Assembly (NCBI GenBank): GCA_964465735.1
Contig: CAYXKT010000001.1
Span: 10,721-74,720, forward strand
Length of the DNA stretch: 64,000 bases
Reading direction: 5' to 3'
From: an uncultured bacterium
GTDB lineage: Bacteria > Auribacterota > Erginobacteria > Erginobacterales > Erginobacteraceae
Part shown: piece by piece, positions 5,567-57,444 of the stretch
Layout: every line of letters begins with the position of its first letter
Numbering within the stretch: the first letter of the stretch is position 1
Notes under the pieces: model-generated
Seen by the model: the letters and a program-made list of their open reading frames with translations, nothing else
Database searches by the model: none
Told to the model about the DNA's origin: nothing
Made by a program: the position numbers and the translations under genes

Positions 5567-5706
5567 TTTATTCGATCTCAGTAGCATCCTAACATTAGTC
5601 GAGGAATATCAACTGGTTATGGGGGCGCCTTGCTCCAAACTATAACTGGAATATATAAGTGTATTCAGATAAAAGTCTCTACTGTTTTATAAGCCTGCAA
5701 TTGTCA

Positions 5707-5800
5707 TTGTGAGGAGCCGAAGGCGACGAAGCAATCTTTAGACTGAGATTGCTTGTCCATCTTCCGTCTGAAGCCGGATAAAAAAGCCAGATCGCAATGA
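5707..5800. repeat. Nested-hairpin repeat element (GTCATTG...CAATGAC inverted termini), copy 1 with an internal deletion
   Basis: The ends TTGTCATTGTGAGG...GCAATGACAAT are inverted. The inner GACGAAGCAAT/ATTGCTTGTC palindrome is shared with the copy at 33693..33850. Confidence 0.5.
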
Positions 5801-6079
5801 CAATCAATAATGTTTTTAAAAGGCTAAAGTGTTACAAATACTCTGGTTTCGCCCTTTCTCATTTGTATAGCTATGCCGACAATAAGATCCAGTTTTACGC
5901 ATAGATTAGCGTATTGTCGGAGTAAGTCATATTGCTCCCTTTTGTTCTTTTCGTCTAAATCCAGGAATGGGTTTATGGTCCGGCTTTATTCCTCCCCTCA
6001 GCTAAACAATAATAAAATTACCGAACAAATATTTGGTTGCGGCTGGTTTTATTCTTGGTGCCAATATAGTTTTAATATC

Positions 6080-6242
6080 ACCTAAATTGAGCGATTCTAT
6101 GCGGCGAACTGCACCAATCTTTTGCCTCCGAACGGATATTGAAAATCCTCGCCATATCTCCTGGATATGGCTGCGGTTTCCGCAACCCGTCGGCCAGCAA
6201 AATCTTAGCACATTTCATCCGCAATAATCGCTCAACTTAGGT
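6080..6242. mobile_element. MITE family A, copy 1 (163 bp, 17-bp TIR ACCTAAATTGAGCGATT, TSD TATCA)
   Basis: Near-identical to the copies at 14523, 46053 and 57244. The termini are perfectly inverted and flanked by a direct 5-bp TATCA. Confidence 0.85.
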
Positions 6243-6273
6243 ATCATTTTGCATAGGATATTTTTATCACCAG

Positions 6274-7165: not shown

Positions 7166-7866
7166 TGAATTTGCTCGGTGGCCCGCATTCCCCAAGCCGG
7201 ACCGCGGGGAGGTGTTGGAACTGTTTCATCCATTTTTCAAGATTATCCTCTCTCCTCAAGCGGTGGTATTTGCCCCTGAAGTCTCGTTCCAGGTAGTGAC
7301 GGCGGTTGCGGATGTTGCGGCGTGTCCGGCTGTCGTTACATTGCAGATAGGTCTCGATATAGGGGGAATCTCGACATAGTAGCCCGGCTCTCGGTTGATG
7401 GCTTCCCGATCCGGGAAACAGGCGGCCAAGAAGCCACCCAGGAGCGAGTCTTTCCGCAGGTCGCTGAAGACAGCGATGTTCCCGTCCAGGTCCCGGGAGA
7501 TGAACGGAGCCAAAGTTTCCAGACACTCTTGCCGGTGTTCGGGCCGGCAGATCAGGTCAAGATACTCGGAGCGGACCGTATCCCCGGTGCCGATGAAAAG
7601 GAGTTCTCGAATCCAGCCGAATGGGCACAGAGGTCTTCTCTGGGTATACAGTGGCAGGAAGTCGATTAGTTCGTTGACTTTCCGGAAGGTAAGGCAATGC
7701 GGCTGCTTCTGTCCGCCGAAGACCTCCCACCAGGTGTAGAGCTACTCCCAGGTCAGGAAGAGGTTGTCTGCCGGGCTCTCCGGCAGGAGCCCCCGCCATT
7801 CATTCTCCAGCGCTGCAAAAGCCTGTTCGTTGTCGCTAACCCTGAGGTCAAGCGCAGTCATCTCCG
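7150..7866 (-). pseudogene. Frameshifted copy of the CelD-like Acetyltransf_6 GNAT acetyltransferase (paralog of 44349..45515)
   Basis: Minus-strand frames jointly reproduce residues ~30-290 of the 388-aa protein (FLTWEWLYTWW, GTGDTVRSEYLDLI, RRNIRNRRHYLERDFRGKYHRL). They are split across ≥3 frames. Confidence 0.6.
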
Positions 7867-10758: not shown

Positions 10759-11406
10759 TTTTAGGTGTGCTTGATAAATCAAACAAATGTTCGGCTAACC
10801 GAACCGGAACTTGCGTTTAGTTCGGTTGTCGGCAGCTCGGCCTCGTTGCCGAGTCAGTACCGGACTAGCCCTCGCCAGTGGTCAGGCTGGCGGCACAGAT
10901 GCATCACGTCGATGCTTTGGATGATGTGATATCTGATCCGGGAAATCACACCATCCGGAAACCGGTGAACAAGGTGTTGCCGTATGCCCTCCTCTTCGTC
11001 TCTAAACAGTCATATTGCAGGCGATTCACTCACGCCAAGAAAGGAGGTGAACCTCTATAGAGTAACTTCCTGAAGCAATGGATGGGAAGAAGTCCCGAGA
11101 CAGCCAAAGCTGGAGCTGCGTAGCACGAGCGGTGGTTGAGGGGGAAACCCCGAAGGCCGAAGTCCGCTGACAGTGTTCACATAAGCCGGGCGAGCAAGTA
11201 TCCGGGTTGTAATGAAAGTGAACATACAAGTAGCCTCGTCACCTAAAACTTCACCAGTCGAGCCTCTGCGAATCGGGCGATTCCACCATCCAGGTGGAAG
11301 GCGAGGATGAAAAACCCTGCCGTCTCTACCGGGACGGCTGTGTCTGACGGTGCCGGGAATGCCAGGCAAAAAGCCGCTGGGGACCCGGAGAAGAGCCATC
11401 AGACGC

Positions 11407-12400
11407 TTAAAGATCCGCCGAGCTCCTGACCGCGATCCCAGGGCGGTTGAGAATGTGGGTGTAGATCGTAGTCGTGCTCACCTCGCTCTGGTCGAAAAGC
11501 TCCTGCTCGGTGCGGATACTGTACCCGGCCTTTAAAAGATGAGTGGCGAAGGAGTGCCGAAGGGTGTGTCAGCTCGCCCGCTTGGTCAACCCCGCCTTCC
11601 GCGTCGCCGCCTTGATTGCCCTCTGCAGCCCGATCGAATGCATATGATGCCGCCGGATCTTTGCGGAACGCGGGTCCGCCGAAAGGCGCCCGGCGGGAAA
11701 GACATACTGCCGGCCCCACTCCCGGGCGGAGTTTTGTCCTTCCGCTCCAGGGCGAGAGATATATATCTCCCCGAACCCTGGAAACTCCCCCCTTCTTTAG
11801 ATCCTCCTTATGGGTGGTCTTGACTTTCTCCAGGTGTTTCCCGGAGGGCAGGCCGGTATCTATCCGGCAATATCGTTCCCCGGTCCTTATTGCCTTTCCC
11901 GTCCCGGATCACGATCTGATTTTGCCCGAAGTCAATGCCCTGTACCCGGTGGCGGATACACTCGATCAACCGAAATCCCGCCCCGTAGAGCAGGCCGGCC
12001 ATCAGGGAATATGGTTCGCTCAAGGCTTCCAGCAGACGGCCCATCTCTTTTCTCCCCAGTACCATCGGCAACCGTTTGGGCTTCCGGGCCGGGGCGAAAT
12101 CGGCGATCAGGTCGAGCGGTTCCTTCAGCGCCTGGTCATAAAAGAAGACCAGGGCGTTGAGGGCCTGCCGCTGGGTAGGAGGGAGACCTTCCTCTCCACG
12201 GCCAGATATTCCAGGTACTCTCTCACCTCTTTCGCCCTCATCTCCCGGGTCGCCTTCAACCCGTGAAAGGAGAGAAACCGTCGGGCCCAGGGAGAGTTGA
12301 TCGAACAGATTGAACTGCTTGGAGAAGACCTTGCGGCACTGAAAGAGAAGCGCAGTAAGACTCTCAAGCATCTCCCCTTATCTGAACTACCCGAGTCCGA
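11407..12400 (-). pseudogene. intI: Integron-type tyrosine recombinase (IntI), inactivated by ≥3 frameshifts
   Basis: Pieces in different frames: FLSFHGLKATREMRAKEVREYLEYLAVERKVS, then ALNALVFFYDQ...LLYGAGFRLIECIRHRVQGIDFGQNQIVIRDGKGNKDRGTILP, then EWGRQYVFPAGRLSADPRSAKIRRHHMHSIGLQRAIKAATRKAGLTK (the IntI-specific additional domain), then [40 protein letters not shown]. Confidence 0.7.
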
Positions 12401-12725
12401 TCGATTTTCTCAATTGGCTTCTACGCGAAAGCACTTCGTTGACTCTATCAAGATGATTGACTATTGTACTGAAACGTCTTTGGCTGGCATCTTGCGTGAT
12501 TCGTTGGCTCGTCCCAAGGATGCACGAGCTTTGTTGCGCGATATCTATACAAATGAAGCCGACATATTTCCAGACGAGGAAGCGGGGACCTTGACTGTCC
12601 GTTTGCATCATCTGACGAACCGGTTGTCGGATCAAGCGGCAAAAGATCTTGCCAAGCATCTCAATAACAGTGAGATTATCTATCCAGGTACAAATCTACG
12701 CTCGCAGTACGAATTGGTATCATAA
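12297..12725 (+). CDS. Hypothetical protein in the attI-proximal position; its C-terminal part could be a remnant of a DDE transposase (uncertain)
   Basis: 142-aa ORF divergent from intI. No confident family assignment. The 5' end overlaps the intI start region. Confidence 0.25.
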   Translation: MIEQIELLGEDLAALKEKRSKTLKHLPLSELPESDRFSQLASTRKHFVDSIKMIDYCTETSLAGILRDSLARPKDARALLRDIYTNEADIFPDEEAGTLTVRLHHLTNRLSDQAAKDLAKHLNNSEIIYPGTNLRSQYELVS

Positions 12726-12897
12726 TAATTCCGTGAAGTCAGGACATCTGAATCTCTGTTGGCACAAAATAGTGTATTGCTAACGCCCATAGACATTGGT
12801 ATCAATAGTGGCATCATATAGTGGCGTCGGATATCAACAACACTCTTGATGAAATGAGGCGGCACCGGCGGGTATCCGTTTCGCGGACTTATGCCGG

Positions 12898-13080
12898 GTG
12901 TGTACTCACTACTCCGGCGAACCGCGACAGAAGGGCACGAGCCATCGGATCTATAAAACCCCCTGGAAGGGTGATCCAAGGGTCAATATCCAGAACGCGA
13001 AAGGCAAGGCGAAGGACTATCAGGTAAGGCAAGTCTTGATAGCCATCGAAAGGATACAATATGAAAGCGGCGGAAAGTGA
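12898..13080 (+). CDS. hicA: HicA-like mRNA interferase toxin with a degenerate N-terminus
   Basis: RQKGTSHRIYKTPWKGDPRVNIQNAKGKAKDYQVRQVL matches the HicA core (KGSHxxxKHP...GKDL...GTL). Only a GTG start is available. It overlaps hicB by 20 nt. Confidence 0.45.
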   Translation: MCTHYSGEPRQKGTSHRIYKTPWKGDPRVNIQNAKGKAKDYQVRQVLIAIERIQYESGGK

Positions 13081-14294: not shown

Positions 14295-14844
14295 GTGCTA
14301 AGCTGGAAGGGGCAGGAATCCCGAACTAAGCAGAAGAAGACGGGGTTTCGGGGTGGAAGCCTGATAAGGAGTCACCTGAATTTTTCGTTTTATGAGAAGC
14401 CGATGATGTTGTTCGGTTTTGTCGGGATGGCTCTTCTGGTACTCGGGCTGATTTTCGGTTTTCATATTATGCTTTTGCGATTCAAAGGTACCCTTACGCC
14501 GAATCGTCCGCTGGTTACTTTAACCTAAGTTGAGCGATTATTGCGGATGAAACGTGCTAAGATTTTGCTGGCCGACGGGTTGCGAAAACCGCAGCCATAT
14601 CCAGGAGATATGGCGAGGATTTTCAATATCCGTTCGGACTCAAAAGATTGGTGCAGTTCGCCGCATAGAATCGCTCAATTTAGGTATAATCTTTATCCTT
14701 GCGGGTATACAGATACTGACTCTGGGGTTTATTGCTAATTATATCGGCTCTCTCCGCAAGGAGATGTTCAAAATCCAGAAACAGAACCAGAACCTCGAAG
14801 GCAAGTTGAGCAGTTCACTGGCGAAGATTAGTCCTTCGCGATAA
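14295..14844 (+). pseudogene. 3' fragment of the 4562..5566 GT2 gene, interrupted by a MITE
   Basis: SLIRSHLNFSFYEKPMMLFG...NRPLVTLT | MITE | IIFILAGIQILTLGFIANYIGSLRKEMFKIQKQN. Confidence 0.65.
14523..14685. mobile_element. MITE family A, copy 2 (inverted orientation), inserted inside the GT2 gene fragment; TSD TTTAA/TATAA
   Basis: Same 163-bp element. The flanks continue the GT2 reading frame on either side. Confidence 0.85.
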
Positions 14845-14873: not shown

Positions 14874-16076
14874 ATGCGTGCCCTGAAAACAATCGGGTAT
14901 TTTACATTATACTATCTTTCGCAGAGAGCATTTAAGTTTCTGGGATATCTCTGGCCGAAAGACCACCAACTTCTCCTCTTCTCTGGATTGAAGGGGATGC
15001 ATTACAGCGATAACACTAAATATTTATTCGAGAGTTTTGCTCGCAATTATTCTGGTGAGTTCAAAATTGTCTGGATAACCGTTAACAAAAGTTTGCTCAG
15101 GAGCGTCGAAGAAAAGAAAATTTCCGGGGCCCGGATAATTTATCAGTGGTCTCTGGATGGTTTCCTGGCGATCCTTCGGGCTGCGGTGGTTTTTTACCTA
15201 TCGGATTCCAGTGATATCCCTTATGTCTTGTTTTCTCGAAGGACCGTTACCTGCCAGTTGTGGCACGGCATCCCGGTTAAGCGTATATGTCTTCTTAAGC
15301 CACGCTGGAATCATTATCCCCACTGGTTGGTGAAATATTTTTACTTTTCGATGTATTCATACTGGATATGCAGTTCCTCTGTCGACCGACTGGCTACCGC
15401 TCTCTGCGTCGGATTACCGATTGACCGAGTTTTGATTACCGGCTATCCGCGTAATGACTATCTGATTGAGCAAAAACAATCGTCGGCCTGCGATTTACTG
15501 GATCGTTTTCCCTACTTGCGGAAGAAAATAATCCTATATGCCCCTACGTGGCGGCAAAACAGTATTGTCCGTTTTTTCCCATTCTTCGATTATTCCCTGG
15601 GAAGAATCAACGAGTTTCTGGAGGGATCCGATGCCTTTATCTTGTTGCGTGGGCATAGATATGAACGCAGGGAAATCGGAGCCATCGATTATGATGCTTT
15701 TATTGGAGATCGGATACTTGACGCATCGAAAAGCATCTTCGAGGATGTTCAAGAATTATTGCCCCACGTTGATATTTTGATTAGTGATTATTCTGGGGTC
15801 TGGGTGGATTACCTGCTCCTGAATCGCCCGATCGTATTTGCCCCTTACGATTTGGAGGAGTTCAAGGTGGAAACCGGCTTGCTTTATAACTATGACTTCG
15901 TCACCCCCGGTCCGAAGGTTGCCACGACCGAAGAACTGATCAAGGCTCTTCGAGAATATATCCACCATCCTGAGAAAGATTCAGAGAGACGGCAATTAAT
16001 CAAAGGTCTATTCCACCAGTATGAAGATGGCCGCTCATACGAGCGGATATACGAAATCGTTAAACGGATAACCTGA
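14874..16076 (+). CDS. CDP-glycerol glycerophosphotransferase family protein (TagF/TagB-like)
   Basis: 400 aa with the ILYAPTWR motif and a C-terminal Glyphos_transf-like region. Confidence 0.75.
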   Translation: MRALKTIGYFTLYYLSQRAFKFLGYLWPKDHQLLLFSGLKGMHYSDNTKYLFESFARNYSGEFKIVWITVNKSLLRSVEEKKISGARIIYQWSLDGFLAILRAAVVFYLSDSSDIPYVLFSRRTVTCQLWHGIPVKRICLLKPRWNHYPHWLVKYFYFSMYSYWICSSSVDRLATALCVGLPIDRVLITGYPRNDYLIEQKQSSACDLLDRFPYLRKKIILYAPTWRQNSIVRFFPFFDYSLGRINEFLEGSDAFILLRGHRYERREIGAIDYDAFIGDRILDASKSIFEDVQELLPHVDILISDYSGVWVDYLLLNRPIVFAPYDLEEFKVETGLLYNYDFVTPGPKVATTEELIKALREYIHHPEKDSERRQLIKGLFHQYEDGRSYERIYEIVKRIT

Positions 16077-16093
16077 ACCTGGTTCTTGGATCT

Positions 16094-17131
16094 ATGAAAA
16101 TCTTGGTGGAAATTGCGCAACAGACCTGTGTCCAGTTTTTTAAGAATATTATCTCGACCTTGAAGAGTCGCGGGCACGAAGTTCAGGTTCTGAGCCGCGA
16201 GCGCGAATGCACCGTGGAATTGCTCAATGAGTATGGCATCGATCATTCTGTCATCAGCAAGTTCACCCCGGGTAAGTATAATTTGTTAACGGAGCTATTG
16301 GTCAGGGATTACAAAATTTGGAAGGCGGGTCGTTCTTTTCAGCCCGACTTGGTTTTAACCGCCAGCATTGCTGGTGTTCACGCGGCTAAGCTATTGCGAG
16401 TTCCCTCCCTATTGCAGAATGACAATGGAAGATCGGCTGGCTTGCTCCACCGGTTGATGGTCCCGCTTGCCACATATGTTTTGACCCCAGATTGCCAGAA
16501 CGAGGATTACGGTTCCGGCCATATTAAATATCCCGGATACAAGGAACTGGCTTATCTCCATCCCGCTAATTTCACCCCGGATTCATCCGTCCTCCAGGAA
16601 CTCGGAATTAAAGCCGGGGAAAGATTATTTATCCTTCGGTTTACCAGTCTTCAGGCTTGTCACGATGCTGGGCGGAAAGGGATGAGTTATGAGCTAAAAA
16701 ACCGGATGATTGAATTATTGCATACCCGGGGCAGGGTATTTATTTCATCCGAAGGAGTTTTGCCGGCGGAATGGGAGAAATTTCGCCTTACATTAAGCCC
16801 CGGGAAAATCCATAGCGCACTTTACTATGCCGATCTCTATGCTGGTGATAGCGGGACAATGGCTTCCGAATCATCGGTCCTGGGAACCCCAGGGATATTT
16901 ATGCTCTCTTTTTCAGGGACGTTGTATTATCTCAAGGAACTGGAAGAAAGGTACGGGTTGCTGTATCAATTTCGACATAATCAGGAAGAAGAATGTATGG
17001 CGCTTGTCCGAAACCTGTTGGATATGAAGAACTTGAAAGCGGCGTGGGCTGAAAAGCGGCAAATAATGCTGGGAGACAAGGTCGATGTCGCGGATTATTT
17101 TGTGAAGAAAATTGAAACGGTTTCGATATGA
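16094..17131 (+). CDS. DUF354-family GT-B-like protein
   Basis: 345 aa. MKILVEIAQ, SRGHEV, YYADLYAGDSGTMASESSVLGTPGI. Confidence 0.55.
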   Translation: MKILVEIAQQTCVQFFKNIISTLKSRGHEVQVLSRERECTVELLNEYGIDHSVISKFTPGKYNLLTELLVRDYKIWKAGRSFQPDLVLTASIAGVHAAKLLRVPSLLQNDNGRSAGLLHRLMVPLATYVLTPDCQNEDYGSGHIKYPGYKELAYLHPANFTPDSSVLQELGIKAGERLFILRFTSLQACHDAGRKGMSYELKNRMIELLHTRGRVFISSEGVLPAEWEKFRLTLSPGKIHSALYYADLYAGDSGTMASESSVLGTPGIFMLSFSGTLYYLKELEERYGLLYQFRHNQEEECMALVRNLLDMKNLKAAWAEKRQIMLGDKVDVADYFVKKIETVSI

Positions 17132-20790: not shown

Positions 20791-22398
20791 ATGAGCAAGT
20801 TTAAACAATTCCGCCAGATGCTTAATTCCGGGAACCTCGAGTTTATTTGTGAGGCGCACAACGCCATAAGCGCTCGGGTGGTGGAGGAAGCGGGTTTCAA
20901 GGGGATCTGGGGAAGCAGCCTGACCATCTCTGCTGCTCTGGGGGTGAGAGACAGCAACGAGGCCAGCTGGACCCAGTTATTGGAAGTTATCGAGTTTATG
21001 AGTGACGCGACCACCGTACCGTTGCTCTTCGATGCCGATACGGGTTTTGGCAATTTCAATAATGTGCGCCGACTGGTCCGAAAACTGGAACAGAGGAATG
21101 TGTCCGCGATGTGCATCGAGGATAAGCTCTTTCCGAAGAAGAATAGCTTTATTGCCAGCGAACGCCAACCGCTGGCCGAGATCGATGAGTTTGCCGGCAA
21201 GATCAAGGCGGCTAAGGATAGCCAGTCCGACCCGAATTTCTCCGTGATCGCCCGGGTGGAAGCGTTTATCGCCGGCTGGGGGTTGGGCGAAGCTATGAAA
21301 AGAGCTGAGGCCTATCACCAGGCCGGGGCGGACGGGATATTGATTCACAGCAAAATATCCAAGCCGGATCAGGTCCTGGCTTTTATGAAGGAATGGGGTG
21401 ATCGGTTGCCGGTGGTGATCGTCCCCACCAAGTATTATACCACCCCGACCGAAGTCTTCGAAGAGGCCGGCTTTAGTCTGGTGATCTGGGCAAATATGAT
21501 TCTGCGCAGTTCTTTGAAAGCGATGAGAGAAACTGCTGAGACACTGGCTCGGGAGAGATCATTGTTAAACATCGTGGATGGGATTGCTCCCCTGGCTGAT
21601 GTTTTTCGTCTTCAGGAGGCGGAAGAACTGGAAGAAGCGGAAAAGTTATACCTTCCGGGGTTTGCCGAGAAGACCCACGCGGTTATCCTGGCTGCTTCCC
21701 AGGGGGTGGAACTCGGTGTTCTGACCCAGGATAAGCCGAAAGCCCTTCTGGAGATCTCCGGTCAGCCGCTGCTGAAGAGACAGATCGAAATTCTCAACGA
21801 GATCGGAATCAAAGATATTACCGTGGTCCGGGGTTTCAAAAAGGAGAAGATCGATTTCCCCAACCTCCATTACGTTGATAACGACGAATACGACCGGACT
21901 CTGGAGGTCTTTTCCCTATATAAGGGAATACAGGGGATTGAGGACAAGGCAATGGTTTGCTACGGGGATATTATGTACCGGAAATTCATTCCCTCCAGCC
22001 TGCTGGAAGCGGAAGGAGATTTCGTGGCTATGGTGGACGCCGACTGGCGTTCGGGCCGGGCGAAGGTGCGCTACACCGATTTCGTCAGTTGCGACCAACC
22101 TTATCAGCGGAGAATGCTGGAACAGTCGGTGGAGATGAAGAAGATGAGCACCGACCTTGAGGAGAAAGATATCTGTGGTGAATGGGTCGGTATGTTGAAA
22201 CTTTCGCGGTCCGGCGTCCAGTTTCTCCAGGGTTTGTTGACTGAACTCTCCGAAGAAGATGGATTTCGGAGCTTGCGGATGGCTGATCTCTTCAACGAGA
22301 TTATCCGCCGTGGCAAGATTATCCGGGTTGTCTATATCCGAGGTCACTGGGTGGATGTGGATGACATAAAGGATCTTAATGCCGCCGGGGCGTTTTAG
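20791..22398 (+). CDS. ppm: Phosphoenolpyruvate phosphomutase fused to a C-terminal sugar-nucleotidyltransferase domain (LicC/PntC-like)
   Basis: N-terminal ~290 aa are isocitrate-lyase/PEP-mutase family ([15 protein letters not shown] motif). C-terminal ~230 aa are an NTP-transferase fold. Good RBS (aaaaggagga). Confidence 0.85.
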
Positions 22399-22490
22399 TT
22401 CACAGCGAAGTTTTTTAATGCCGCTGTTTAGCAGAAAAACCAAGGCTGGGAAAGAGCATTGCGTCCGGCCAGTTGTACCTAAATTTTAAT

Positions 22491-23645
22491 ATGATCAAGG
22501 CGGAACAATTCATCTCGGAATGCATTCGGCTGGGTTACGACTTCTGGGCCGGTGTGCCCTGTTCGATCTTGACCCCCCTGATCAACTGCTCCATCTCCCA
22601 TCCGGAGGTTGACTATGTTGGCGCTGCGAGTGAGGGTGAGGCGGTGGCTATTGCCATCGGAGCTCACCTGGCCGGCAGGAAGGCGGTTGTAAACTGCCAG
22701 AACTCTGGACTGGGGAATATGGTCAACCCGTTAACCAGCCTGATCCATCCTTTCCGGATTCCATTTTTGATGATAGTTACCCTCCGCGGCGAACCGGGTA
22801 TCAAGGACGCTCCCCAGCATACTTTTATGGGTTCGATCACCACTGATCTGCTTGATCTTCTCCAGATACCCTGGGAGATAATGCCGGAAGATACCAGGCA
22901 AATCCCGGCCGCCGTCAACCGGGCCGATTCAAGTATGGGTGACACGGGATTCCCGTATGCCTTCGTTATGCGGAAAGCTGGAATGGAGCCGAGCCCGCTG
23001 GGTAAAGTTGCCTGTCCGCCATCCTGTACATATTTTAGCCCACAAGGGGAATGCTTGATTCCCGCCGGAAGCAGAATGAAGAGGTTGGATGCCGTCAGAA
23101 TTATCCGAGATCATCTGGATCCGGAGGATTTGATGGTGGGAACCACTGGCAAAACCAGCCGGGAGCTTTTCGCCCTGGGCCACCGTCCCAACCAGTTCTA
23201 TGTGGTCGGAGGTTTGGGCTGCGCGGCCGGCATTGGCCTGGGTTTGAGTCTCAACCTTGGGGAATGCCGGGTGGCGGTCCTGGACGGTGATGGCGGAGTA
23301 TTGATGAAGATGGGGACGCTGGCCACGATCGGATTTTATCGCCCCCCCGGGTTGATCCATATCGTGTTGGACAACGAGGCTCACGAATCCACCGGGGGGC
23401 AGGGGACTTGTTCGTCGGGGATAGATTTTGCCGCAATCGCTGCGGCCTGTTCGTATCGGGCGGTTTTCCGCGCTGACACTGCTGGTTCCCTGGCCGAAGC
23501 GGTCAGAGAAGCGAAGCGATTGGAAGGGCCGGTGATGATCCACGTCAAGATCGGCCTTGGCTCCGACCCCGCTCTTCCCCGGCCGGATCGCAGTCCGAAA
23601 GAATACAAGGAGGAATTTCAGAGGTTTATCCGAGATGAAAGCTGA
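22491..23645 (+). CDS. ppd: Phosphonopyruvate decarboxylase (ThDP-dependent)
   Basis: FWAGVPCSIL N-terminus with ThDP-binding GDG and N-x-x-H motifs. Immediately downstream of ppm. Confidence 0.85.
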   Translation: MIKAEQFISECIRLGYDFWAGVPCSILTPLINCSISHPEVDYVGAASEGEAVAIAIGAHLAGRKAVVNCQNSGLGNMVNPLTSLIHPFRIPFLMIVTLRGEPGIKDAPQHTFMGSITTDLLDLLQIPWEIMPEDTRQIPAAVNRADSSMGDTGFPYAFVMRKAGMEPSPLGKVACPPSCTYFSPQGECLIPAGSRMKRLDAVRIIRDHLDPEDLMVGTTGKTSRELFALGHRPNQFYVVGGLGCAAGIGLGLSLNLGECRVAVLDGDGGVLMKMGTLATIGFYRPPGLIHIVLDNEAHESTGGQGTCSSGIDFAAIAAACSYRAVFRADTAGSLAEAVREAKRLEGPVMIHVKIGLGSDPALPRPDRSPKEYKEEFQRFIRDES

Positions 23646-24783
23646 TTATTTCAACCCGGTGAAGCTGAAAATCGGGCGGGGATCTCTTCGAGATATTTTT
23701 AGCCTGTTGGGAGGTAGGACCGCCCTGTTGGTAACTACCACCGGAGCGTTAAAAAGGGGGTTGGGGCGGAGAATAGAGGAGTTGTGCGGAGGCTTGGTGG
23801 TTCACATCACTGACAGGACGGTATCCAACCCGACGATTTCCTCGATTGAAGAATGCTACGAAGAGATCCGGGGGTATGATTTCGAGGTGATAATTGGCCT
23901 GGGCGGAGGGAGTGTTCTCGATACAGCCAAGGTCGTGGCTTATCTCTCCGGACTGAACTTGGAACAGGGCTGGCTCGGATATTATTTCCGGGAGAAGGTG
24001 GCAAAAGCTTGCGGGGGCGCTCCCCGGCCAGTACTGGCCATACCTACCACAGCCGGTACCGGATCGGAGGTAACTTCCTGGGCCACAGTCTGGGACGAGA
24101 AGTTGAAAAAAAAGTATTCGCTTTCGGATGATCTGTTATATCCGGAGTGGGCTCTTCTGGATCCATCCTTGACGGAATCTCTGCCTTACGAGGTAACCCT
24201 GTCTGGTAGTCTCGATGCGCTGTCGCATTCTATGGAGGCCGTCTGGAACAGGAATGCCAACCCGGTCTCAACTGAACTGGCGCTGCGGTCGGTGGAGATG
24301 ATAATGGCGGTCTGGAATGATAACTTCCGGGAGCGCTACGCGGACCGAGAATCACGGGAGAAACTTCAGCTTGCCTCACTGCTGGCCGGACTGGCATTCA
24401 GCAACACTAAAACCGCACTGGCACACTCGATCTCATATCCCCTTACTTCTCTTCTGGGGATACCTCACGGCCTGGCCTGCGGGTTTACCCTTCCGGAGAT
24501 ATTGCTCCATAACGGGGAAGCCGCAGAGGAGATAGTATCGCCACTGGCGCTGGCAATGGGCTGCTCTTCAGTTTATGAGGCGCGGGAATGCCTATACGAA
24601 GTATTTAAAAGAATTGGGGTGCCGGAGTTCCTGGAGGGGTTTGTCAAGAGCCCCGACATTCTGGACGGAATCCAGGCAGAGTATATCTCTCCGGGCCGGG
24701 CGGATAATAATATCGTTGATGTGCAACAGGCCGAGGCTGAACAGATTGTCGCTTCGGCGTTCAGGGAACTGACCGGGGATTGA
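23635..24783 (+). CDS. Iron-containing alcohol dehydrogenase; likely phosphonoacetaldehyde reductase (PhpC/FomC-like, 2-hydroxyethylphosphonate forming)
   Basis: Fe-ADH family (GGGSVLDTAKVVA, metal-binding His-rich motifs). 11-nt overlap with ppd. No aminotransferase is present in the cluster. Confidence 0.6.
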   Translation: MKADYFNPVKLKIGRGSLRDIFSLLGGRTALLVTTTGALKRGLGRRIEELCGGLVVHITDRTVSNPTISSIEECYEEIRGYDFEVIIGLGGGSVLDTAKVVAYLSGLNLEQGWLGYYFREKVAKACGGAPRPVLAIPTTAGTGSEVTSWATVWDEKLKKKYSLSDDLLYPEWALLDPSLTESLPYEVTLSGSLDALSHSMEAVWNRNANPVSTELALRSVEMIMAVWNDNFRERYADRESREKLQLASLLAGLAFSNTKTALAHSISYPLTSLLGIPHGLACGFTLPEILLHNGEAAEEIVSPLALAMGCSSVYEARECLYEVFKRIGVPEFLEGFVKSPDILDGIQAEYISPGRADNNIVDVQQAEAEQIVASAFRELTGD

Positions 24784-24788
24784 ACGCA

Positions 24789-25490
24789 ATGAAAGCAATC
24801 ATACTGAATTCAGGAGTCGCCAGTCGTCTGAAACCGCTGACTGATGAAATGCCCAAATGCTTGCTGGAGGTTAAGGGGGAGACGCTCCTGGGGAGGCAGT
24901 TGAAATGCCTGGAAAAATGCGGAATAACGGAACTCATCATCACCACTGGCCCGTTCGAAGAGAAAATTGTTAACTTTGTTGGGGACAATTTCTCCGAATT
25001 GCGGACAGCATTCATCAGAAATCCTCGCTATGCCTCCACCAACTATATTTACTCGATCTGGTTGGCTCGAGACCTCCTTGACGACGATATCTTGCTGCTT
25101 CACGGCGATATGTTATTCGATTGCTCACTGTTGCAGAGAATCGTCGCTAAGGAGTCCGGGAACCACGTTCTGGTCAACAAAGTGATCGAGCCTCCGGAAA
25201 AAGATTTTAAGGCCCGGATAGAAAAGGAAAGAGTAATGGAAATCGGTGTCAACCTTTCCGGACCGAATGTATATTTTTGCGCCCCGATATATAGGTTCTC
25301 CCGGCAAGGTTTCCGGGACTGGCTCAAGGAAATCAAGATTTGTCTTGACGAAGGCCAGTTCAATTGTTACGCGGAGGAGGCCTTTAACAGAATATCCAGC
25401 GGCTTGAAACTGGATCCAATTTATTACAGCACTGAAGAGTGTATGGAAATTGATTCTCCGGAAGATTTGCAATTGGCAAATAGTAGGTAA
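24789..25490 (+). CDS. Nucleotidyltransferase (LicC-like CTP:phospho-headgroup cytidylyltransferase family)
   Basis: KAIILNSGVASRLKPLTDEMPKCLL N-terminal NTP-binding motif, typical of LicC/PntC. Confidence 0.6.
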   Translation: MKAIILNSGVASRLKPLTDEMPKCLLEVKGETLLGRQLKCLEKCGITELIITTGPFEEKIVNFVGDNFSELRTAFIRNPRYASTNYIYSIWLARDLLDDDILLLHGDMLFDCSLLQRIVAKESGNHVLVNKVIEPPEKDFKARIEKERVMEIGVNLSGPNVYFCAPIYRFSRQGFRDWLKEIKICLDEGQFNCYAEEAFNRISSGLKLDPIYYSTEECMEIDSPEDLQLANSR

Positions 25491-27099: not shown

Positions 27100-27545
27100 A
27101 ATCTTTTTTCAATGATTGCTTGCGATTGTTTCGAATAATGCGGGGGCTATTATATTAACGCAACTCTTAAAACAGCCCACGCAGCGGGCGACACATAAAT
27201 AGCCACGGGCGTTAGCCCGTGGATGATAATGGCAGATAAAACAATAGAGCCCCCGCAGGGGGCGGGACATAATTTCCTTTTGAGAGATCTGGATTGAGCC
27301 TAAAAAATTGATGTGGCACTCTTTCTGGGTGCCATCAGAAGTTGCTCCAAAAAACCCGGGACTGCCCCCCGGGCTATGATGTTGGACGCCTTTGGCGTAA
27401 TGCATTTACCCCGAAGGGGTAATACATAATATCCCGGCGAGCATTGCCGGGATCATCCGGGATCAACAGTTAATCCCGCACCCCAAAGGGGCGTCACATC
27501 AAGGTTGTATTTGAAAAGGCTAAAGTGTTACGAATATCGTTATAT
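27100..27545. repeat. Long hairpin-array repeat (≥10 consecutive short stem-loops), related to the MITE at 48640
   Basis: Units such as TGGCACnnnnnnnnnGTGCCA, CCCGGGnnnnnnCCCGGG, ACCCCGAAGGGGT and CCCGGCGAGCATTGCCGGG. It ends with the tgtatttgaaaaGGCTAAAGTGTTACgaa terminus shared with 48883 and 5821. Confidence 0.6.
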
Positions 27546-27586: not shown

Positions 27587-28954
27587 ATGGCCGCCATTGA
27601 GATAGATAAAAGCTCGGATAATACCGGAGGCGTGTTTGTCAAGAAGAGCGCCTTTACCCTCTTTACCCGAGTGATTCTTATTGTCGTCTCATTTGGCGCC
27701 AGTGTGGTAACGGCCAGACTATTAGGACCGGCGGGGAAGGGGCAATTGTCCGTGATTCTTTTGGCCCCGACCTTGTTGATGAACCTGGGCGGGTTAGCGA
27801 TTACCTCCTCCAATGTATTCCTCATCGGGAGAAGGAAACCAAAGCTCAACGAAATATTTTGGAATTCGACTCTCTTCTCCATTGTATTGGGTATCCTGCT
27901 GATCTTAATATTTCTTATATTTCGTCCCTGGCTTGACTCTTTTTTCAGAAATGCGGACCCAGTTCTGATCACGATTGCGTTAGCCACAGTGCCCTTCAGC
28001 TTATTTTACGTCTATGGCATATTTATTCCTCTGGGGGAGAGAAAAGTTGTAGCTTACAATATCCTGAAGGTGATTGAGCCGGTTGTCTATTTTATGGCTC
28101 TGGTCATTTTTATCTGGATATTGAAGTTGGAAATAATTGGCGGTCTGGTGGCATATATATTTGGCATCCTCGGTGGCTGCATAGCCTTGCTGGTCTATGC
28201 GAAAAGACATATCCCTCTCAAATTTCAATTAAACTTAAAACTGATCAAGGAAGGCTGCGTTTATGGCGCGAAGTGCCACGTGGAAAGCGCCGCCTGGTTT
28301 TTTATCCGAAGAATATCGGTTTTGCTGATCAATAAATATATGGAACCCAAGGATGTCGGTTGGTATGTGGTGGCAGTCGCTTTGAGCGAAGCTCTCTGGC
28401 ATCTTCCGATGTCGATTTCCACGGTCTTGTTTCCGGAAATTTGTTCCAAGCATAATGCGTGCAACCAGAAAGAGATGGCTTCACGAGTATGCAGGAATTC
28501 GATATTTATTCTTGTCGTGAGCGCGATCATATTAGGAGCGTTCGCGTATTTATTGATAAATTTCTTTTATGGACGGGAGTACTCCCCCAGCATTAATGCT
28601 CTTTTACTCCTCCTTCCGGGCTCGGTATTGTTAGGCGCGATGCTGGTTTTAAGCACATATATGAGGGGGATTAATCGGCCTATGGTGGCGAGCCTGATTG
28701 CGTGCGCTATGCTTGTCTGCACCGTAATTACCAATATTATTTTAATCCCACTGATGGGTATCTACGGTGCGGCACTGTCTTTGTCCGTTACGGCGGCCAT
28801 AGGCTTTGTCCTTATCGTCGTTATCTACGCGAAAATGACTGGAGAGAAAGCTGCCCAGTTTCTTATTATCGGCCGGGAAGATTTTCAATATTATCGCGAT
28901 ATGTATTCAAGACTAATCGTTTCGAGATTTAAAAAAGATGGAAAATCTATTTAA
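27587..28954 (+). CDS. Wzx-like polysaccharide flippase (MOP superfamily)
   Basis: 455 aa, ~12-14 TM helices, typical O-unit flippase architecture. Confidence 0.65.
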   Translation: MAAIEIDKSSDNTGGVFVKKSAFTLFTRVILIVVSFGASVVTARLLGPAGKGQLSVILLAPTLLMNLGGLAITSSNVFLIGRRKPKLNEIFWNSTLFSIVLGILLILIFLIFRPWLDSFFRNADPVLITIALATVPFSLFYVYGIFIPLGERKVVAYNILKVIEPVVYFMALVIFIWILKLEIIGGLVAYIFGILGGCIALLVYAKRHIPLKFQLNLKLIKEGCVYGAKCHVESAAWFFIRRISVLLINKYMEPKDVGWYVVAVALSEALWHLPMSISTVLFPEICSKHNACNQKEMASRVCRNSIFILVVSAIILGAFAYLLINFFYGREYSPSINALLLLLPGSVLLGAMLVLSTYMRGINRPMVASLIACAMLVCTVITNIILIPLMGIYGAALSLSVTAAIGFVLIVVIYAKMTGEKAAQFLIIGREDFQYYRDMYSRLIVSRFKKDGKSI

Positions 28955-44348: not shown

Positions 44349-45515
44349 TTAACCGCTCTTTTTGCGGATCCGGGATTTGAGACGGTGTGCCGATCCGTAA
44401 AGCTGGCCTTGAAATGTATTGTTGATAATGCGATGGGAACTGATCGTGGTCTGGCTGTTGGAGAAATGCCGTTTGTAGTTTTCACTACCGGCTAAAAAGT
44501 CGAACTTTCCGATTTCTTCTCTTCCGCAGTCCTCGATCATATAACTGATCAGGGCTTGCATCACCCCCTGTCGCCCGAATTTTGGTTCAAATCCGGTTTG
44601 GTAGTCGTAAACCTTCCCCCTGTAATTGAAGTTGTAGCGGGCGGCGACGGTTTTTCCGTCCAGACGGAGGTCGGCGGCAAAGAGGAGGCCGGAGTCATAA
44701 AAGATTCGGGAGAGGCGATCGTGGAAGCGTTGGTAGATGGGGTCGGCGAACTTGCTGGGCAGTCCACGTTCTTCGAGACGGGCGGCGTGGAGGCGCTTGA
44801 ACTCCTCCATCCATTCATCGAGGTTTTCTTCTCTGTTCAGGCGGTGGTATTCAACCCGGAAATCCCGCTCCAGATTGCGGCGGCGGTTGCGGATGTTGCG
44901 GCGCATCCGACTGTCGATCCCTTTGAGGTAGGTTTCGAATTTGGCTGGGACTTTGACAAAGTAGCAGGGTTCGCGGTTGATGATCTCCCGGGCGGGGAAA
45001 CGGTCGTCAAGAAATGATCCGAGAAGAGAATCTTCGGGCAGGTCGGTGAAGACGGCGATATCCCAGTCCCGGTCGCGGGAGAGGAATCCTTCCAGCAACT
45101 CCAGGCATTCTTCCCGGTGGCCCGGGAGGCAGATCAGGTCGAGGTACTCGGAGCGGACGGACTCGCCGGTGCCGATAAAGCGGAGTTCCCGGATTTTTGC
45201 CAGGCGGAGCAGGGGGCGGTTTCTGATATAGCAGGGGAGGATGCCGACCAGTCTGGTTTCATCCCGGAAGGTCAGGATATGCGGCTGTTTACCTTCGCCG
45301 AAGACTTTCCACCAGGTGGAGACCCACTCCCAGGTCAGGAAGATGTTGTCGGCCCGGGTCTGAGGGAGCAGGGCCTTCCATTCCTGTTCCAGGGCGAGAA
45401 AATCATCCTCATTGGTTATCAGGGATTGATTGATCATTTTTAAGCGCGAATCTTCGCGAATCTTCTCGAAGTAATCCCCCGCCTCGCCCCCTGTTTTTGA
45501 ACCACGAATTTTCAC
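44349..45515 (-). CDS. CelD/BioF2-like GNAT acetyltransferase (Acetyltransf_6 family)
   Basis: 388 aa. FLTWEWVSTWW, RRNIRNRRRNLERD, and a C-terminal GNAT-fold region. Parent of the pseudogene at 7150..7866. Confidence 0.65.
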   Translation of the reverse strand: MKIRGSKTGGEAGDYFEKIREDSRLKMINQSLITNEDDFLALEQEWKALLPQTRADNIFLTWEWVSTWWKVFGEGKQPHILTFRDETRLVGILPCYIRNRPLLRLAKIRELRFIGTGESVRSEYLDLICLPGHREECLELLEGFLSRDRDWDIAVFTDLPEDSLLGSFLDDRFPAREIINREPCYFVKVPAKFETYLKGIDSRMRRNIRNRRRNLERDFRVEYHRLNREENLDEWMEEFKRLHAARLEERGLPSKFADPIYQRFHDRLSRIFYDSGLLFAADLRLDGKTVAARYNFNYRGKVYDYQTGFEPKFGRQGVMQALISYMIEDCGREEIGKFDFLAGSENYKRHFSNSQTTISSHRIINNTFQGQLYGSAHRLKSRIRKKSG

Positions 45516-45635: not shown

Positions 45636-46050
45636 TCAGAGTTGGGCGACCGCCCAGTCGTGAAATCGCCGGACTTGGTTCAGCAGGGCCAGGGCTTCCC
45701 CTTTGGAGAAATCGCGGTCTTCATATTCGACCAGATTCTTCTTCGCGATTACCCTTTTTCCCAACTGTACTTTCTGTCCGATTTCTTTCAAGTTGGAGGC
45801 TTCCAGGGAGTTCAGCAATTCAACTGCCGCCATCTGGCTGATGCTTATGGAACGAATCCCGGAGTACTTAACCAGTAGGGCGTCGATAAGAAAAATGACG
45901 CAATGGACTCCGTTGAGTCCGATCGCGTTCCAGTTTTCCGCTTCCTCCGCCTGGAACATCATTTGGCAGAACTCCTTTCCCTTCTTCAGATAATCCGGAT
46001 ATTGGGTCTTATCAATTGTTCGGATCTGTCTTGTTCCGGCTGGATTGATA
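45636..46050 (-). CDS. HEPN-domain protein (partner of the upstream minimal nucleotidyltransferase); 5' end disturbed by a MITE
   Basis: Helical ~120-aa domain with an Rx4-6(H/Q) region (SISQMAAVELL). The ORF N-terminus is encoded by MITE sequence, so the true start is probably M at MMFQAEE. Confidence 0.45.
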
Positions 46051-46052
46051 CC

Positions 46053-46215
46053 ACCTAAATTGAGCGATTCTATGCGGCGAACTGCACCAATCTTTTGCGT
46101 CCGAACGGATATTGAAAATCCTCGCCATATCTCCTGGATATGGCTGCGGTTTTCGCAACCCGTCGGCCAGCAAAATCTTAGCACATTTCATCCGCAATAA
46201 TCGCTCAACTTAGGT
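46053..46215. mobile_element. MITE family A, copy 3, between the MNT and HEPN genes; TSD TACCA
   Basis: Same 163-bp element with a perfect 5-bp direct-repeat flank. Confidence 0.85.
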
Positions 46216-46236
46216 ACCAATATTCTCTCGAGGGTT

Positions 46237-48489: not shown

Positions 48490-48639
48490 CCGGAGATGGC
48501 CCTGCCGGAACGTTTTATTTGCCGGTTCTTCCATTTCCCTGTGGGATATCCCACCTCTACTTTGCCGGACTGCTCATCTTAAAACTTCTTTCCGATCAAG
48601 TGTGGTGTGGGGAAGAGGATAGACTGGAGGAAGAAGTTT

Positions 48640-48895
48640 GGTAACACTTTAGCTGTTTAAAAATATGATGTGGCACCCCTTCAGGGTGCCATCGGATATT
48701 TGGATTGCCCGATAAAACCCGGGGCGGTGCCCCGGGCTATAATGTGGGACGCCTTTCACGTCCCTTCATTGACCCCGAAGGGGTAATACATCGTAGCCCG
48801 GCGAGCATCGCCGGGATCCTCCGGGATCAAAAATTAATCCCGCACTCCAAAGGAGTGCTACATCAAGTCTGTATTTGCAAAGGCTAAAGTGTTAC
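48640..48895. mobile_element. MITE family B: 256-bp hairpin-array element with 13-bp TIRs (GTAACACTTTAGC) and an 8-bp TSD (GAAGTTTG)
   Basis: Left gaagtttg|GTAACACTTTAGC..., right ...GCTAAAGTGTTAC|gaagtttg. The interior is 8 consecutive short stem-loops homologous to 27309..27531. Confidence 0.8.
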
Positions 48896-48942
48896 GAAGT
48901 TTGATATTAAATTTCGCCTGATCCAATCAAGGGAGTAAAGCA

Positions 48943-49203
48943 ATGCAAAAACACTATCTTGGATGGGCTTTGGGCTTTATGGCTGTCTGGGTTCTGGCGG
49001 CGCCGGCACGGGCGTTGGCTTATCTTGACCCGGGGACGGGGAGTTATCTCTTCCAGATCCTGATCGCCGCGCTGGCGGGGGGGATCTTCGCCATTAAGCT
49101 CTTCTGGGGGAGGATCTCGGCATTCTTTTCTGGGGTGTTCGGGAAGGGCAAGACTACAGAGATCGAGGTTAGAGATGATGCCGGTTCTGGGAAGCCGGAA
49201 TAA
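48943..49203 (+). CDS. Small membrane protein with a YLDPGTGS motif
   Basis: Signal/TM N-terminus followed by YLDPGTGSYLFQ. Overlaps the downstream methyltransferase gene. Confidence 0.35.
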   Translation: MQKHYLGWALGFMAVWVLAAPARALAYLDPGTGSYLFQILIAALAGGIFAIKLFWGRISAFFSGVFGKGKTTEIEVRDDAGSGKPE

Positions 49204-57216: not shown

Positions 57217-57243
57217 ACCTATCCAGTTCTAAAAGTTGATTTA

Positions 57244-57406
57244 ACCTAAATTGAGCGATTCTATGCGGCGAACTGCACCAATCTTTTGCGTCCGAACGGA
57301 TATTGAAAATCCTCGCCATATCTCCTGGATATGGCTGCGGTTTTCGCAACCCGTCGGCCAGCAAAATCTTAGCACATTTCATCCGCAATAATCGCTCAAC
57401 TTAGGT
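57244..57406. mobile_element. MITE family A, copy 4; TSD TTTAA
   Basis: Same 163-bp element, with a perfect 5-bp direct-repeat flank. Confidence 0.85.
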
Positions 57407-57444
57407 TTAATTGATTGCCGGGTCAAAAAACAGTCTTGATGGTG

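Follow-up and report, generated by a model that had tools for sequence, protein, structure and literature searches.

The stretch of DNA analysed here, 64,000 nucleotides from an uncultured bacterium of the Auribacterota (hereafter the window), is a cell-envelope glycan locus, where genes for glycosyltransferases, a Wzx-type flippase and PMT_2-type membrane glycosyltransferases are accompanied by a phosphoenolpyruvate-mutase gene set and toxin-antitoxin pairs. Two arrays of GC-rich hairpins lie within it, each about 50 nt upstream of a plus-strand gene: the flippase gene at 27587 and a small membrane-protein gene at 48943. The array next to the latter gene is a non-coding element of 255 bp (48641-48895), inside which only spurious open reading frames (ORFs) of up to 60 aa are found. 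This element is very probably a non-autonomous DNA transposon, or MITE (miniature inverted-repeat transposable element), derived from or trans-mobilised by an insertion sequence of the IS66 family. Its parts, in window coordinates, are the following:

48633-48640, no strand: left target-site duplication GAAGTTTG, read directly and identical to 48896-48903.
48641-48662, plus strand: left terminal inverted repeat GTAACACTTTAGCTGTTTAAAA, with 3 mismatches to the family consensus.
48641-48768, plus strand: left foldback arm (from the arm alignment), composed of the repeat, hairpin a (48671-48691), hairpin b, a linker and hairpin c.
48718-48766, plus strand: two-hairpin module CCCGGGGC-GGT-GCCCCGGG, then CTATAATGTG, then GGGACG..CGTCCC; a weak copy of an Acido-Lenti-1-like module.
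48769-48895, minus strand: right foldback arm (from the arm alignment), whose reverse complement is homologous to the left arm, with hairpin a' at 48842-48858.
48771-48815, minus strand: two-hairpin module CCCGGCGA-TGC-TCGCCGGG, then CTACGATGTATTA, then CCCC-TTCG-GGGG; Acido-Lenti-1-like.
48874-48895, minus strand: right terminal inverted repeat, TTTGCAAAGGCTAAAGTGTTAC on the plus strand, from a repeat search (family D17) and the terminus alignment.
48896-48903, no strand: right target-site duplication GAAGTTTG, read directly.

The terminal inverted repeats share a perfect core of 13 bp (GTAACACTTTAGC at 48641-48653, with its counterpart GCTAAAGTGTTAC at 48883-48895) and match at 18 of 22 positions over their full length, while a perfect 8-bp direct repeat, GAAGTTTG, abuts both ends. 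A preliminary description of this DNA had already proposed a MITE with 13-bp inverted repeats and an 8-bp target-site duplication, and the proposal is borne out by 43 unique complete relatives and by an autonomous IS66-family element with the same ends. Two details need amending: the 13-mer is indeed perfect, but the repeat is really an imperfect one of about 22 bp, and the right end at 48895 was correctly placed, whereas the true start is 48641 and not 48640. The terminal 13-mer occurs four times in the window (5823, 27519, 48641 on the minus strand, and 48883), against a mean of 0.46 in shuffled sequences, with none of 100 shuffles reaching four.

The 22-bp terminus, GTAACACTTTAGCCTTTTGAAA, ends hundreds of short elements in metagenome-assembled genomes (MAGs) and metagenomes. 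A scan of 185,579 species genomes for TTTNNAAAGGCTAAAGTGTTAC returned at least 114 stretches, and a metagenome scan for GTAACACTTTAGCCTTTTGAAA at least 120. All copies begin with GTAAC and, among the matches listed (which is also the scope of the counts of flanking repeats and of the MAG labels below), the sequence outside GTTAC is unrelated between loci in every case, and the sequence inside falls into lineage-specific classes. When the second end was sought as a diverged inverted copy upstream of each terminus, perfect 8-bp flanking repeats were found for 18 elements in genomes and 28 in metagenomes, and repeats with one mismatch for 12 more. Deduplication left at least 43 unique elements that are complete and 62-392 bp long, every one flanked by a perfect, A/T-rich 8-bp duplication of its own. 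Their left ends give the consensus GTAacAnTTTAGcnnTTTGAAA (the right end, GTAACACTTTAGCCTTTTGAAA, was set by the search pattern), and their duplicated targets the consensus V-A-A-W-W-W-T-B, A/T-rich and roughly palindromic, which GAAGTTTG fits save two positions. The concern, voiced in the preliminary description, that the flanking octamer could belong to the element itself can be laid to rest: the flanks diverge right outside GTAAC/GTTAC and each copy has an 8-bp duplication of its own, so that GAAGTTTG lies outside the element. A sigma-54 promoter, an integron attC site, a JUMPstart/ops sequence and an intrinsic terminator were also considered as identities of the terminus, and were dropped because divergence sets in exactly at GTTAC in all copies and the duplications abut it.

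The MAGs bearing the terminus are mostly labelled as Desulfobacterales and other Thermodesulfobacteriota (Desulfobacterota), and the remaining labels are Brocadia, Kuenenia, Brocadiaceae, one Planctomycetota MAG, Nitrospinota, Syntrophia and Candidatus Erginobacter (Auribacterota). Some of these labels may reflect binning errors; the flank of a “Nitrospinaceae” contig, for instance, is that of Desulfobacterales contigs. Many of the terminus matches lie about 90 nt from a contig end, as would be anticipated for a multi-copy repeat. Viral contigs, when scanned for the terminus, yielded 0 matches, and BLAST searches of the PLSDB plasmids with the element and with a 45-nt end returned chance matches only.

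The assignment of the window element to the IS66 family follows from the match between its ends and those of elements that encode a transposase. On metagenome contig L215 (1-2198, minus strand), the exact terminus is separated by 102 nt from an ORF of 291 aa, which is overlapped by a second one that is cut off by the contig end. The 291-aa product matches Pfam DruA/DUF4338 (PF14236; E = 3e-37), DruA being otherwise known as a Druantia anti-phage protein domain. The second matches DDE_Tnp_IS66 (PF03050; E = 5e-28) and zf-IS66 (PF13005; E = 1e-6), and reaches 182.9 bits with the NCBIfam model NF033517 (transpos_IS66), above its equivalog cut-off of 180. Homologues of this transposase are numerous in the protein database (2508 at E <= 1e-30, with full-length proteins of 457-459 aa), and most of them sit on contigs of about 2.4-2.6 kb, as expected of a collapsed repeat. 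Among contigs L247-L273, full-length elements were recovered as 18 copies from about 13 distinct loci (e.g. L247:2034-4398, L249:2034-4402 and L267:333-2707; one locus is identical in three assemblies), all of 2365-2375 bp, with two overlapping genes and GTAACAnTTTAGCnnTTTGAAA at both ends. Their ends can be aligned with those of the three window elements over 22 nt and no further, and the left repeat at 48641-48662 is alignable with both ends of the IS66-type elements on L215, L249 and L258. The further copies and the cognate transposase for which the preliminary description had suggested a search are thereby both at hand outside the window, as short copies and as an IS66-family parent.

This parent lacks tnpA and tnpB; the only ORF upstream of its transposase gene, with an overlap of 14 nt, is DruA/DUF4338-like and encodes 292 aa. 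The parent thus either stands closer to the ISBst12 group, which has a single transposase, or forms a separate subgroup. Two other stretches bounded by the terminus were considered as parents and rejected: one of 2.5 kb from Kuenenia (L022), which consists of nested short elements and small membrane ORFs, and one from Brocadiaceae (L027), whose 418-aa ORF is IS110-type by eye. The latter stretch, from a MAG, spans 2.56 kb (L027:334-2893) between two termini that resemble each other in inverted orientation over 40 nt; it has no duplication and may represent an IS110-type insertion into one of these terminus-bounded elements, the IS110 call coming from the appearance of the sequence. A search for transposases beside the terminus in the genome loci, including a clustering of recurrent ORFs, brought up only housekeeping genes and syntenic orthologues, and no IS66 gene is listed for a 50-kb stretch of pO157.

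Published ends of IS66-family elements start with GTAA(G/C) (PMC12898284; PMC12888890), as exemplified by ISDge4 of Deinococcus geothermalis, with ends GTAACTGCTCAGCA and an 8-bp direct repeat (PMC12898284), and by ISPa75, with ends GTAACCGTCC (PMC12888890); 8-bp repeats are also reported for ISPpa5a and ISPpa7 (PMC3281130, Table 2). By gene content, the closest known representatives are those of the ISBst12 group, such as ISDge4, which has the same GTAAC start and whose GTAACTGCTCAGCA is identical at 9/14 positions to GTAACACTTTAGCC of the window family. The short elements show an 8-bp direct repeat, and elements with the terminus encode a transposase that passes the IS66 equivalog cut-off and carries both the DDE_Tnp_IS66 and zf-IS66 domains. 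The window element differs from the members of this family in being non-coding and of only 255 bp, and its parent in carrying a DruA/DUF4338-like ORF without classical TnpA/TnpB; the full-length copies examined, moreover, have no matching duplication.

This last point is one of several that weigh against the origin proposed. A matching 8-bp duplication is present at none of the roughly 13 full-length loci, whereas most of the two-ended short elements have one; short-read chimeras, nesting in related elements or recombination between copies are possible explanations. Fragments of the terminal repeat adjoin the full-length elements on L258 and L250, which hints at nesting. No IS66 transposase occurs among the 49 ORFs scanned in the 64-kb window; the parent does not lie in this stretch, so that trans-mobilisation in the source organism is an inference. 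An empty site was looked for and not found for the window copy, and every metagenome contig extending to this locus breaks within the element; the contigs of public assemblies of the source organism, which occurs in samples SRR11702755, SRR11702770, SRR29792785 and JGI 3300044572, end inside both arrays. Copies of the hairpin-bearing subfamily are few, their five arms all lying in the window, and its terminus, TATTTGNAAAGGCTAAAGTGTTAC, gave 0 matches in the metagenome scan. Finally, hairpin pairing has been kept through compensatory changes, leaving room for some function of the hairpins.

Bacterial MITEs such as Correia/NEMIS, Nezha, MITEPsy1 and Chunjie resemble the window element in being small, non-coding and multi-copy, with inverted repeats and a target duplication, and also in their long, stable stem-loop fold, their mostly intergenic position and the abundance of one-ended decayed copies (PMC10969869, PMC3184786). 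A sharing of ends with a transposase-supplying insertion sequence has likewise been argued for MITEPsy1 and ISPsy2 (PMC3189936). Chunjie, from Geobacter uraniireducens, has 21-bp repeats and a 9-bp duplication whose sole published example, ACGACCGGT, is GC-rich (PMC3184786, PMC6042816), in contrast to the A/T-rich 8-bp duplication of the window family, the terminus of which is found under MAG labels of several phyla. The identity of both families was provisionally rejected on the length and GC-richness of that duplication, Chunjie being compared by its published description only. A full-text literature search with the terminus sequence returned no paper, and the family, set apart from Chunjie by the published descriptions, seems to be an undescribed one of an ordinary kind of selfish DNA.

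The interior of the element, which had been described as a chain of about 8 stem-loops, is indeed made of GC-rich hairpins; it is not a simple chain, however, but two mirror-image arms with three main hairpins each. The left half (48641-48768), when compared with the right half (48769-48895) in reverse complement, can be aligned over its full length. Each arm runs in the same order, from the terminal repeat through A/T-rich sequence that ends in TGATGT to hairpin a, and then over a spacer to hairpin b (8 bp), a linker CTAnnATGT and hairpin c. The arms are about 73% identical, and their interiors without the terminal repeats match at 70/96 aligned bases (z = 6.1, a score reached by 0/1000 shuffles), whereas a direct, non-inverted comparison of the two arms scores like random sequence. 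The folding energy of the element is -123 kcal/mol (z = -8 against shuffles), a strong value that a foldback yields automatically.

The arms also occur in the second array, and a third element of the family lies near the start of the window:

27141-27283, minus strand: array part A1, an extra and more diverged arm in right-arm orientation, with the outer part of its inverted repeat gone.
27284-27404, plus strand: left arm of array part A2, with a module at 27355-27399 (plus strand); only the inner left repeat survives (..ATTGAGCCTAAAAAA..).
27405-27531, minus strand: right arm of array part A2, with a module at 27407-27451 (minus strand) and an intact right inverted repeat at 27510-27531.
5649-5835 (start approximate), plus strand: element of a second subfamily that carries a long ATTGTCATTG..CAATGACAAT palindrome as its cargo; of its two repeats, the right one (5814-5835) is intact and the left one decayed.

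The alignment of 27297-27545 with 48655-48900 has 206/243 aligned bases identical (about 85%) over the common part, and no left terminus with up to 7 mismatches in 22 was found in the longer array. That this array is homologous, shares the right terminus and lacks a recognisable left one was thus rightly seen in the preliminary description, as were the TGGCAC..GTGCCA hairpins, present in both arrays. Its make-up as a chain of at least ten hairpins can be refined: a five-arm alignment that includes both arms of 48641-48895 resolves it into three arms (A1, A2-left and A2-right), that is, an element missing its outer left end plus one extra arm. In turn, the terminus near 5821-5840, taken as a solo copy, is really the right end of the 187-bp element with a decayed left end (5649-5835), which shares 75% identity over 190 nt with a two-ended element of 219 bp on contig L014, from a MAG of Candidatus Erginobacter occultus. 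The palindrome ATTGTCATTGTGAGGAGCCGAAGGCGACGAAGCAATC ... GATCGCAATGACAAT, cargo of the window copy at 5700-5810, is also found at L014:2960-3110 of this Auribacterota MAG.

The origin of such one-ended copies can be followed at an orthologous site, where L019:1464-1731 holds a complete element of 268 bp with the duplication GAATACTC, whereas on the related metagenome contigs L149 (6588-7006) and L155 (4179-4555) a deletion reaching into the flank has left no more than about 55 nt of the right end. The orthologous sites examined show deletion decay and not the absence of the element. Both the longer array (27141-27531) and the 5649-5835 element are older relatives that lost a left end and are probably immobile by now. 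A spurious 98-aa ORF that spans the longer array, when used to search for other arrays, matched only itself.

The hairpins themselves bring to mind a known motif. At the gathering thresholds of Rfam nothing is detected in the arrays; in a relaxed scan, Acido-Lenti-1 (RF01687, gathering score 37) gives 30.7 bits at 48771-48815 (minus strand; E = 0.0045 over the window), 25.5 bits at 27174-27222 (minus strand) and 16.3 bits at 48718-48766, the sole other notable match in the window being a group II intron domain. A model of the motif rebuilt from its 35 published seed sequences (R1; PMC2864571, Additional file 5) was run unfiltered over the window, and its five best matches fall one per arm: 32.8 bits (48771-48815, minus), 28.0 (27174-27222, minus), 22.0 (27407-27451, minus), 20.2 (27355-27399, plus) and 16.6 (48718-48766; E = 0.021 over the window). 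The sixth, a partial match of 13.4 bits, also lies inside the element, and the best full-length match outside the arrays reaches 9.4 bits. The similarity extends from hairpin b across the G-CUA..AUG linker, of about 12 nt, to hairpin c, and the five modules align end to end with the model, whose two hairpins are of 8 and 5 bp.

Common to Acido-Lenti-1 and the window modules are an 8-bp GC-rich stem, G-CUA, an A/U-rich linker with AUG, a stem of 4-6 bp that often has a CUUCGG-type loop, and a multi-copy habit, often in arrays of alternating orientation. In contrast, the best score in the window stays below the gathering score, the motif's conserved 4-nt loop with two additional pairs beside it is replaced by loops of 3 nt, or of 4 nt in one module, and the modules sit in MITE arms with inverted repeats and a target duplication. 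The motif has been reported from Lentisphaerae, Planctomycetes (PVC group), Acidobacteria and Geobacter uraniireducens (PMC2864571), and in Lentisphaera araneosa it forms tandem multi-hairpin arrays of alternating orientation (PMC2864571); beyond the taxa, its original description mentions no more than that it sometimes lies near group II introns (PMC2864571). No 10-mer of the terminus occurs anywhere in the flanked alignment of published copies, and no GTAAC terminus in the one-fourteenth of it that was inspected. Conversely, no Acido-Lenti-1-like module is present in 1.19 Mb of other-genome loci that bear the terminus, which together with the wide distribution of the latter indicates a widely shared shell with lineage-specific cargo. 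In many of the Lentisphaera seed sequences, pair 4-17 of the first stem is an A-C mismatch (CCUAGC..GCCAGG), which reads as G-U on the opposite strand (PMC2864571); provided that Acido-Lenti-1 is an RNA, the strand annotated for it may be worth re-examining.

Conservation of pairing among the arms is real. In a comparison of four arms all three hairpins are kept, each with one pair changed on both sides, and in an alignment of the five modules 56/56 pair cells are standard and 6/13 pairs are changed on both sides, a result matched by 0/500 shuffles and by no slid control; this alignment was fitted to the model and comprises five related copies only. G-U pairs are absent from the module alignment and take up 2/68 cells in hairpin a, and modules occur in both orientations within a single element, two features that favour DNA palindromes over a strand-specific RNA. 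The “selection on structure” proposed in the preliminary description is borne out only in part: the compensatory changes are real, but a DNA palindrome accounts for them at least as well as an RNA does. Its alternative wording, a mosaic of the REP/BIME type (repetitive extragenic palindromes and bacterial interspersed mosaic elements) or a structured RNA in a transposable shell, was fair as a hedge, and can now be made more precise as cross-phylum ends around lineage-specific modules that resemble Acido-Lenti-1. Most likely, the modules are palindromic passengers, maintained as self-complementary DNA and without a demonstrated role for the host, and any effect on the downstream envelope-glycan genes (e.g. 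on mRNA stability or termination) would be a by-product. Promoter-like matches in the arrays are at background level, and an outward hybrid promoter considered at 27511-27540 (TTGAAA-18-TATCGT) was rejected, matching the consensus only at background frequency. Terminator-like hairpins with T-rich tails are more frequent than expected on the minus strand of the longer array (27175-27453; 5 against a shuffle mean of 0.7); this enrichment is found only antisense to the flanking genes, and the hairpins coincide with the modules and their A/U-rich linkers.

Three other explanations of these arrays have to be weighed. The modules could be functional structured RNAs, either small RNAs of the Acido-Lenti-1 type or leaders, stabilisers or terminators acting in cis on the downstream glycan operons, with the shell only delivering them. 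The concentration of the five best model matches of the 64 kb inside the two arrays (32.8-16.6 bits, versus 9.4 outside), the Rfam scores of 30.7 and 25.5 bits, the standard and doubly changed pairs, the position of both arrays 48-56 nt upstream of plus-strand genes, the strong fold and the five minus-strand terminator-like hairpins all speak for it. Against it, the Rfam scores fall below the gathering threshold, the fold is that of any foldback, the pair alignment was model-fitted on five related copies, the promoter scan stayed at background, and 3/5 modules are antisense to the flanking genes. Besides, any transcript would carry module and anti-module together, as both orientations occur in one element, the scarcity of G-U pairs is what a DNA palindrome predicts, and no function is known for Acido-Lenti-1 itself (PMC2864571, Additional file 1). 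An RNA function is possible and is not the best reading; in this form, we consider it quite unlikely.

The modules could also be REP-like sequences that were spread by a RAYT (REP-associated tyrosine transposase) and colonised the transposon, the array then growing by a second, independent mechanism. REP/BIME sequences and REPINs share with the arrays the GC-rich imperfect palindromes, A/T-rich spacers, inverted doublets, intergenic mosaic arrays and a TAG beside the palindrome; they differ in being RAYT-dependent and in having no such terminal inverted repeats or target duplication, whereas the window unit is bounded by IS66-type ends. REPs, as reportedly defined by Nunvar in 2010 and by Bertels and Rainey in 2011, combine a 5′ GTAG with a palindrome. 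On the strand opposite to the Rfam orientation the modules do offer xTAG and a GC-rich palindrome, as in CGTAG-CCCGGCGA..TCGCCGGG (48792-48815) and ATAG-CCACGGGC..GCCCGTGG (27199-27222), and yet GTAG is found in 1/5 modules, with ATAG in three and ATAT in one. Their inverted pairs are REPIN-like, although a REP is a single hairpin and the module has two. In favour are also the tandem arrays of the motif in Lentisphaera araneosa, with no GTAAC termini in the part of the flanks inspected and no terminus 10-mer in the file; and the lack of modules in the 1.19 Mb around other copies of the terminus shows shell and cargo to be separable. Against this, all five modules lie in homologous arms, so that arm duplication alone accounts for their number, no isolated module occurs elsewhere in the 64-kb window, and none of the 49 window ORFs scanned is a Y1/RAYT-type gene; this scenario appears improbable to us. 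As for the inverted ends and the flanking GAAGTTTG being chance features of an A/T-rich spacer, and the arrays local duplications, the few copies in the window and the two arrays, 85% identical and in the same kind of locus, could be invoked. That idea has virtually no credit left, and can be taken as refuted, in view of the 13-mer found 4 times against 0.46 expected, the recurrence of the 22-mer in hundreds of unrelated loci, the 43 independent 8/8 duplications directly abutting the termini, and the same ends on a transposase-encoding element.

Under the IS66-type origin that we favour, an IS66-type transposase, perhaps together with the DruA-like protein, would bind the common 22-bp ends and cut the target with an 8-bp stagger at A/T-rich sites of roughly VAAWWWTB sequence. 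The short element would be moved in trans by this transposase, whose parent would be, or would have been, present elsewhere in the source genome, and copies would then decay through the loss of one end. The hairpin arms would travel as passenger DNA with their self-complementarity maintained.

A bolder extension concerns Acido-Lenti-1 as a whole. This orphan Rfam family, a candidate small RNA in listings since 2010, might not be an RNA gene but a self-complementary DNA module riding mobile elements through PVC-group, acidobacterial and deltaproteobacterial genomes. We regard this as a speculation with a small chance of being right. If true, it would reveal a two-tier arrangement, with a cross-phylum shell and a lineage-specific cargo that here rides in the arms of an IS66-type MITE. 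In a stronger version, the modules may confer some selectable property (termination, insulation or transcript stabilisation), the shell delivering them before envelope-glycan operons.

Other features of the window bear on the history of the locus. A different MITE of about 170 bp, probably the “first MITE type” of the preliminary description, is present in four copies (6072-6246, 46045-46219, 57236-57410 and 14515-14689), three of them 96-97% identical; its ends are inverted repeats of 17 bp, ACCTAARTTGAGCGATT, its duplications are of 3 bp (ATC, ACC and TTA), and a metagenome relative at L151:6486-6657 has the duplication TAA. A cluster of mobile-element debris at 11055-12980 contains domain D1-D4 of a group II intron (57.9 bits at 11080-11217), part of a phage integrase on the minus strand (11808-12368) and, at 12297-12722, a Transposase_29 remnant of 140 aa from the C-terminus. 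Gene-sized direct repeats that are 73-87% identical (e.g. 439-1602 and 15216-16383, or 7167-7832 and 44748-45414) indicate that parts of the glycan locus are duplicated paralogous blocks. Within the same locus, positions 20791-25490 encode a phosphoenolpyruvate mutase-nucleotidyltransferase fusion, a decarboxylase dependent on thiamine pyrophosphate, an iron alcohol dehydrogenase and a second nucleotidyltransferase, a phosphonate gene set that suggests a phosphonate-decorated surface glycan.

With these results, a 22-bp terminus that is widespread among uncultured bacteria of sediments, groundwater, wastewater and anammox reactors is now tied to a transposase. The family breaks short-read assemblies, many contigs ending about 90 nt inside it, and its recognition is useful for annotating MAGs and for explaining such contig breaks. 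The structured spacers before the genes at 27587 and 48943 are accordingly to be read as transposon debris, and not as riboswitches or leaders unless expression data call for it. The window also offers the first genomic context in which an Acido-Lenti-1-like module appears as a part of mobile DNA, so that the question of whether the motif is an RNA gene or a DNA palindrome becomes testable. The biology is an ordinary one for mobile elements, and the finding should be of use mainly in the annotation of uncultured genomes and in a re-reading of Acido-Lenti-1.

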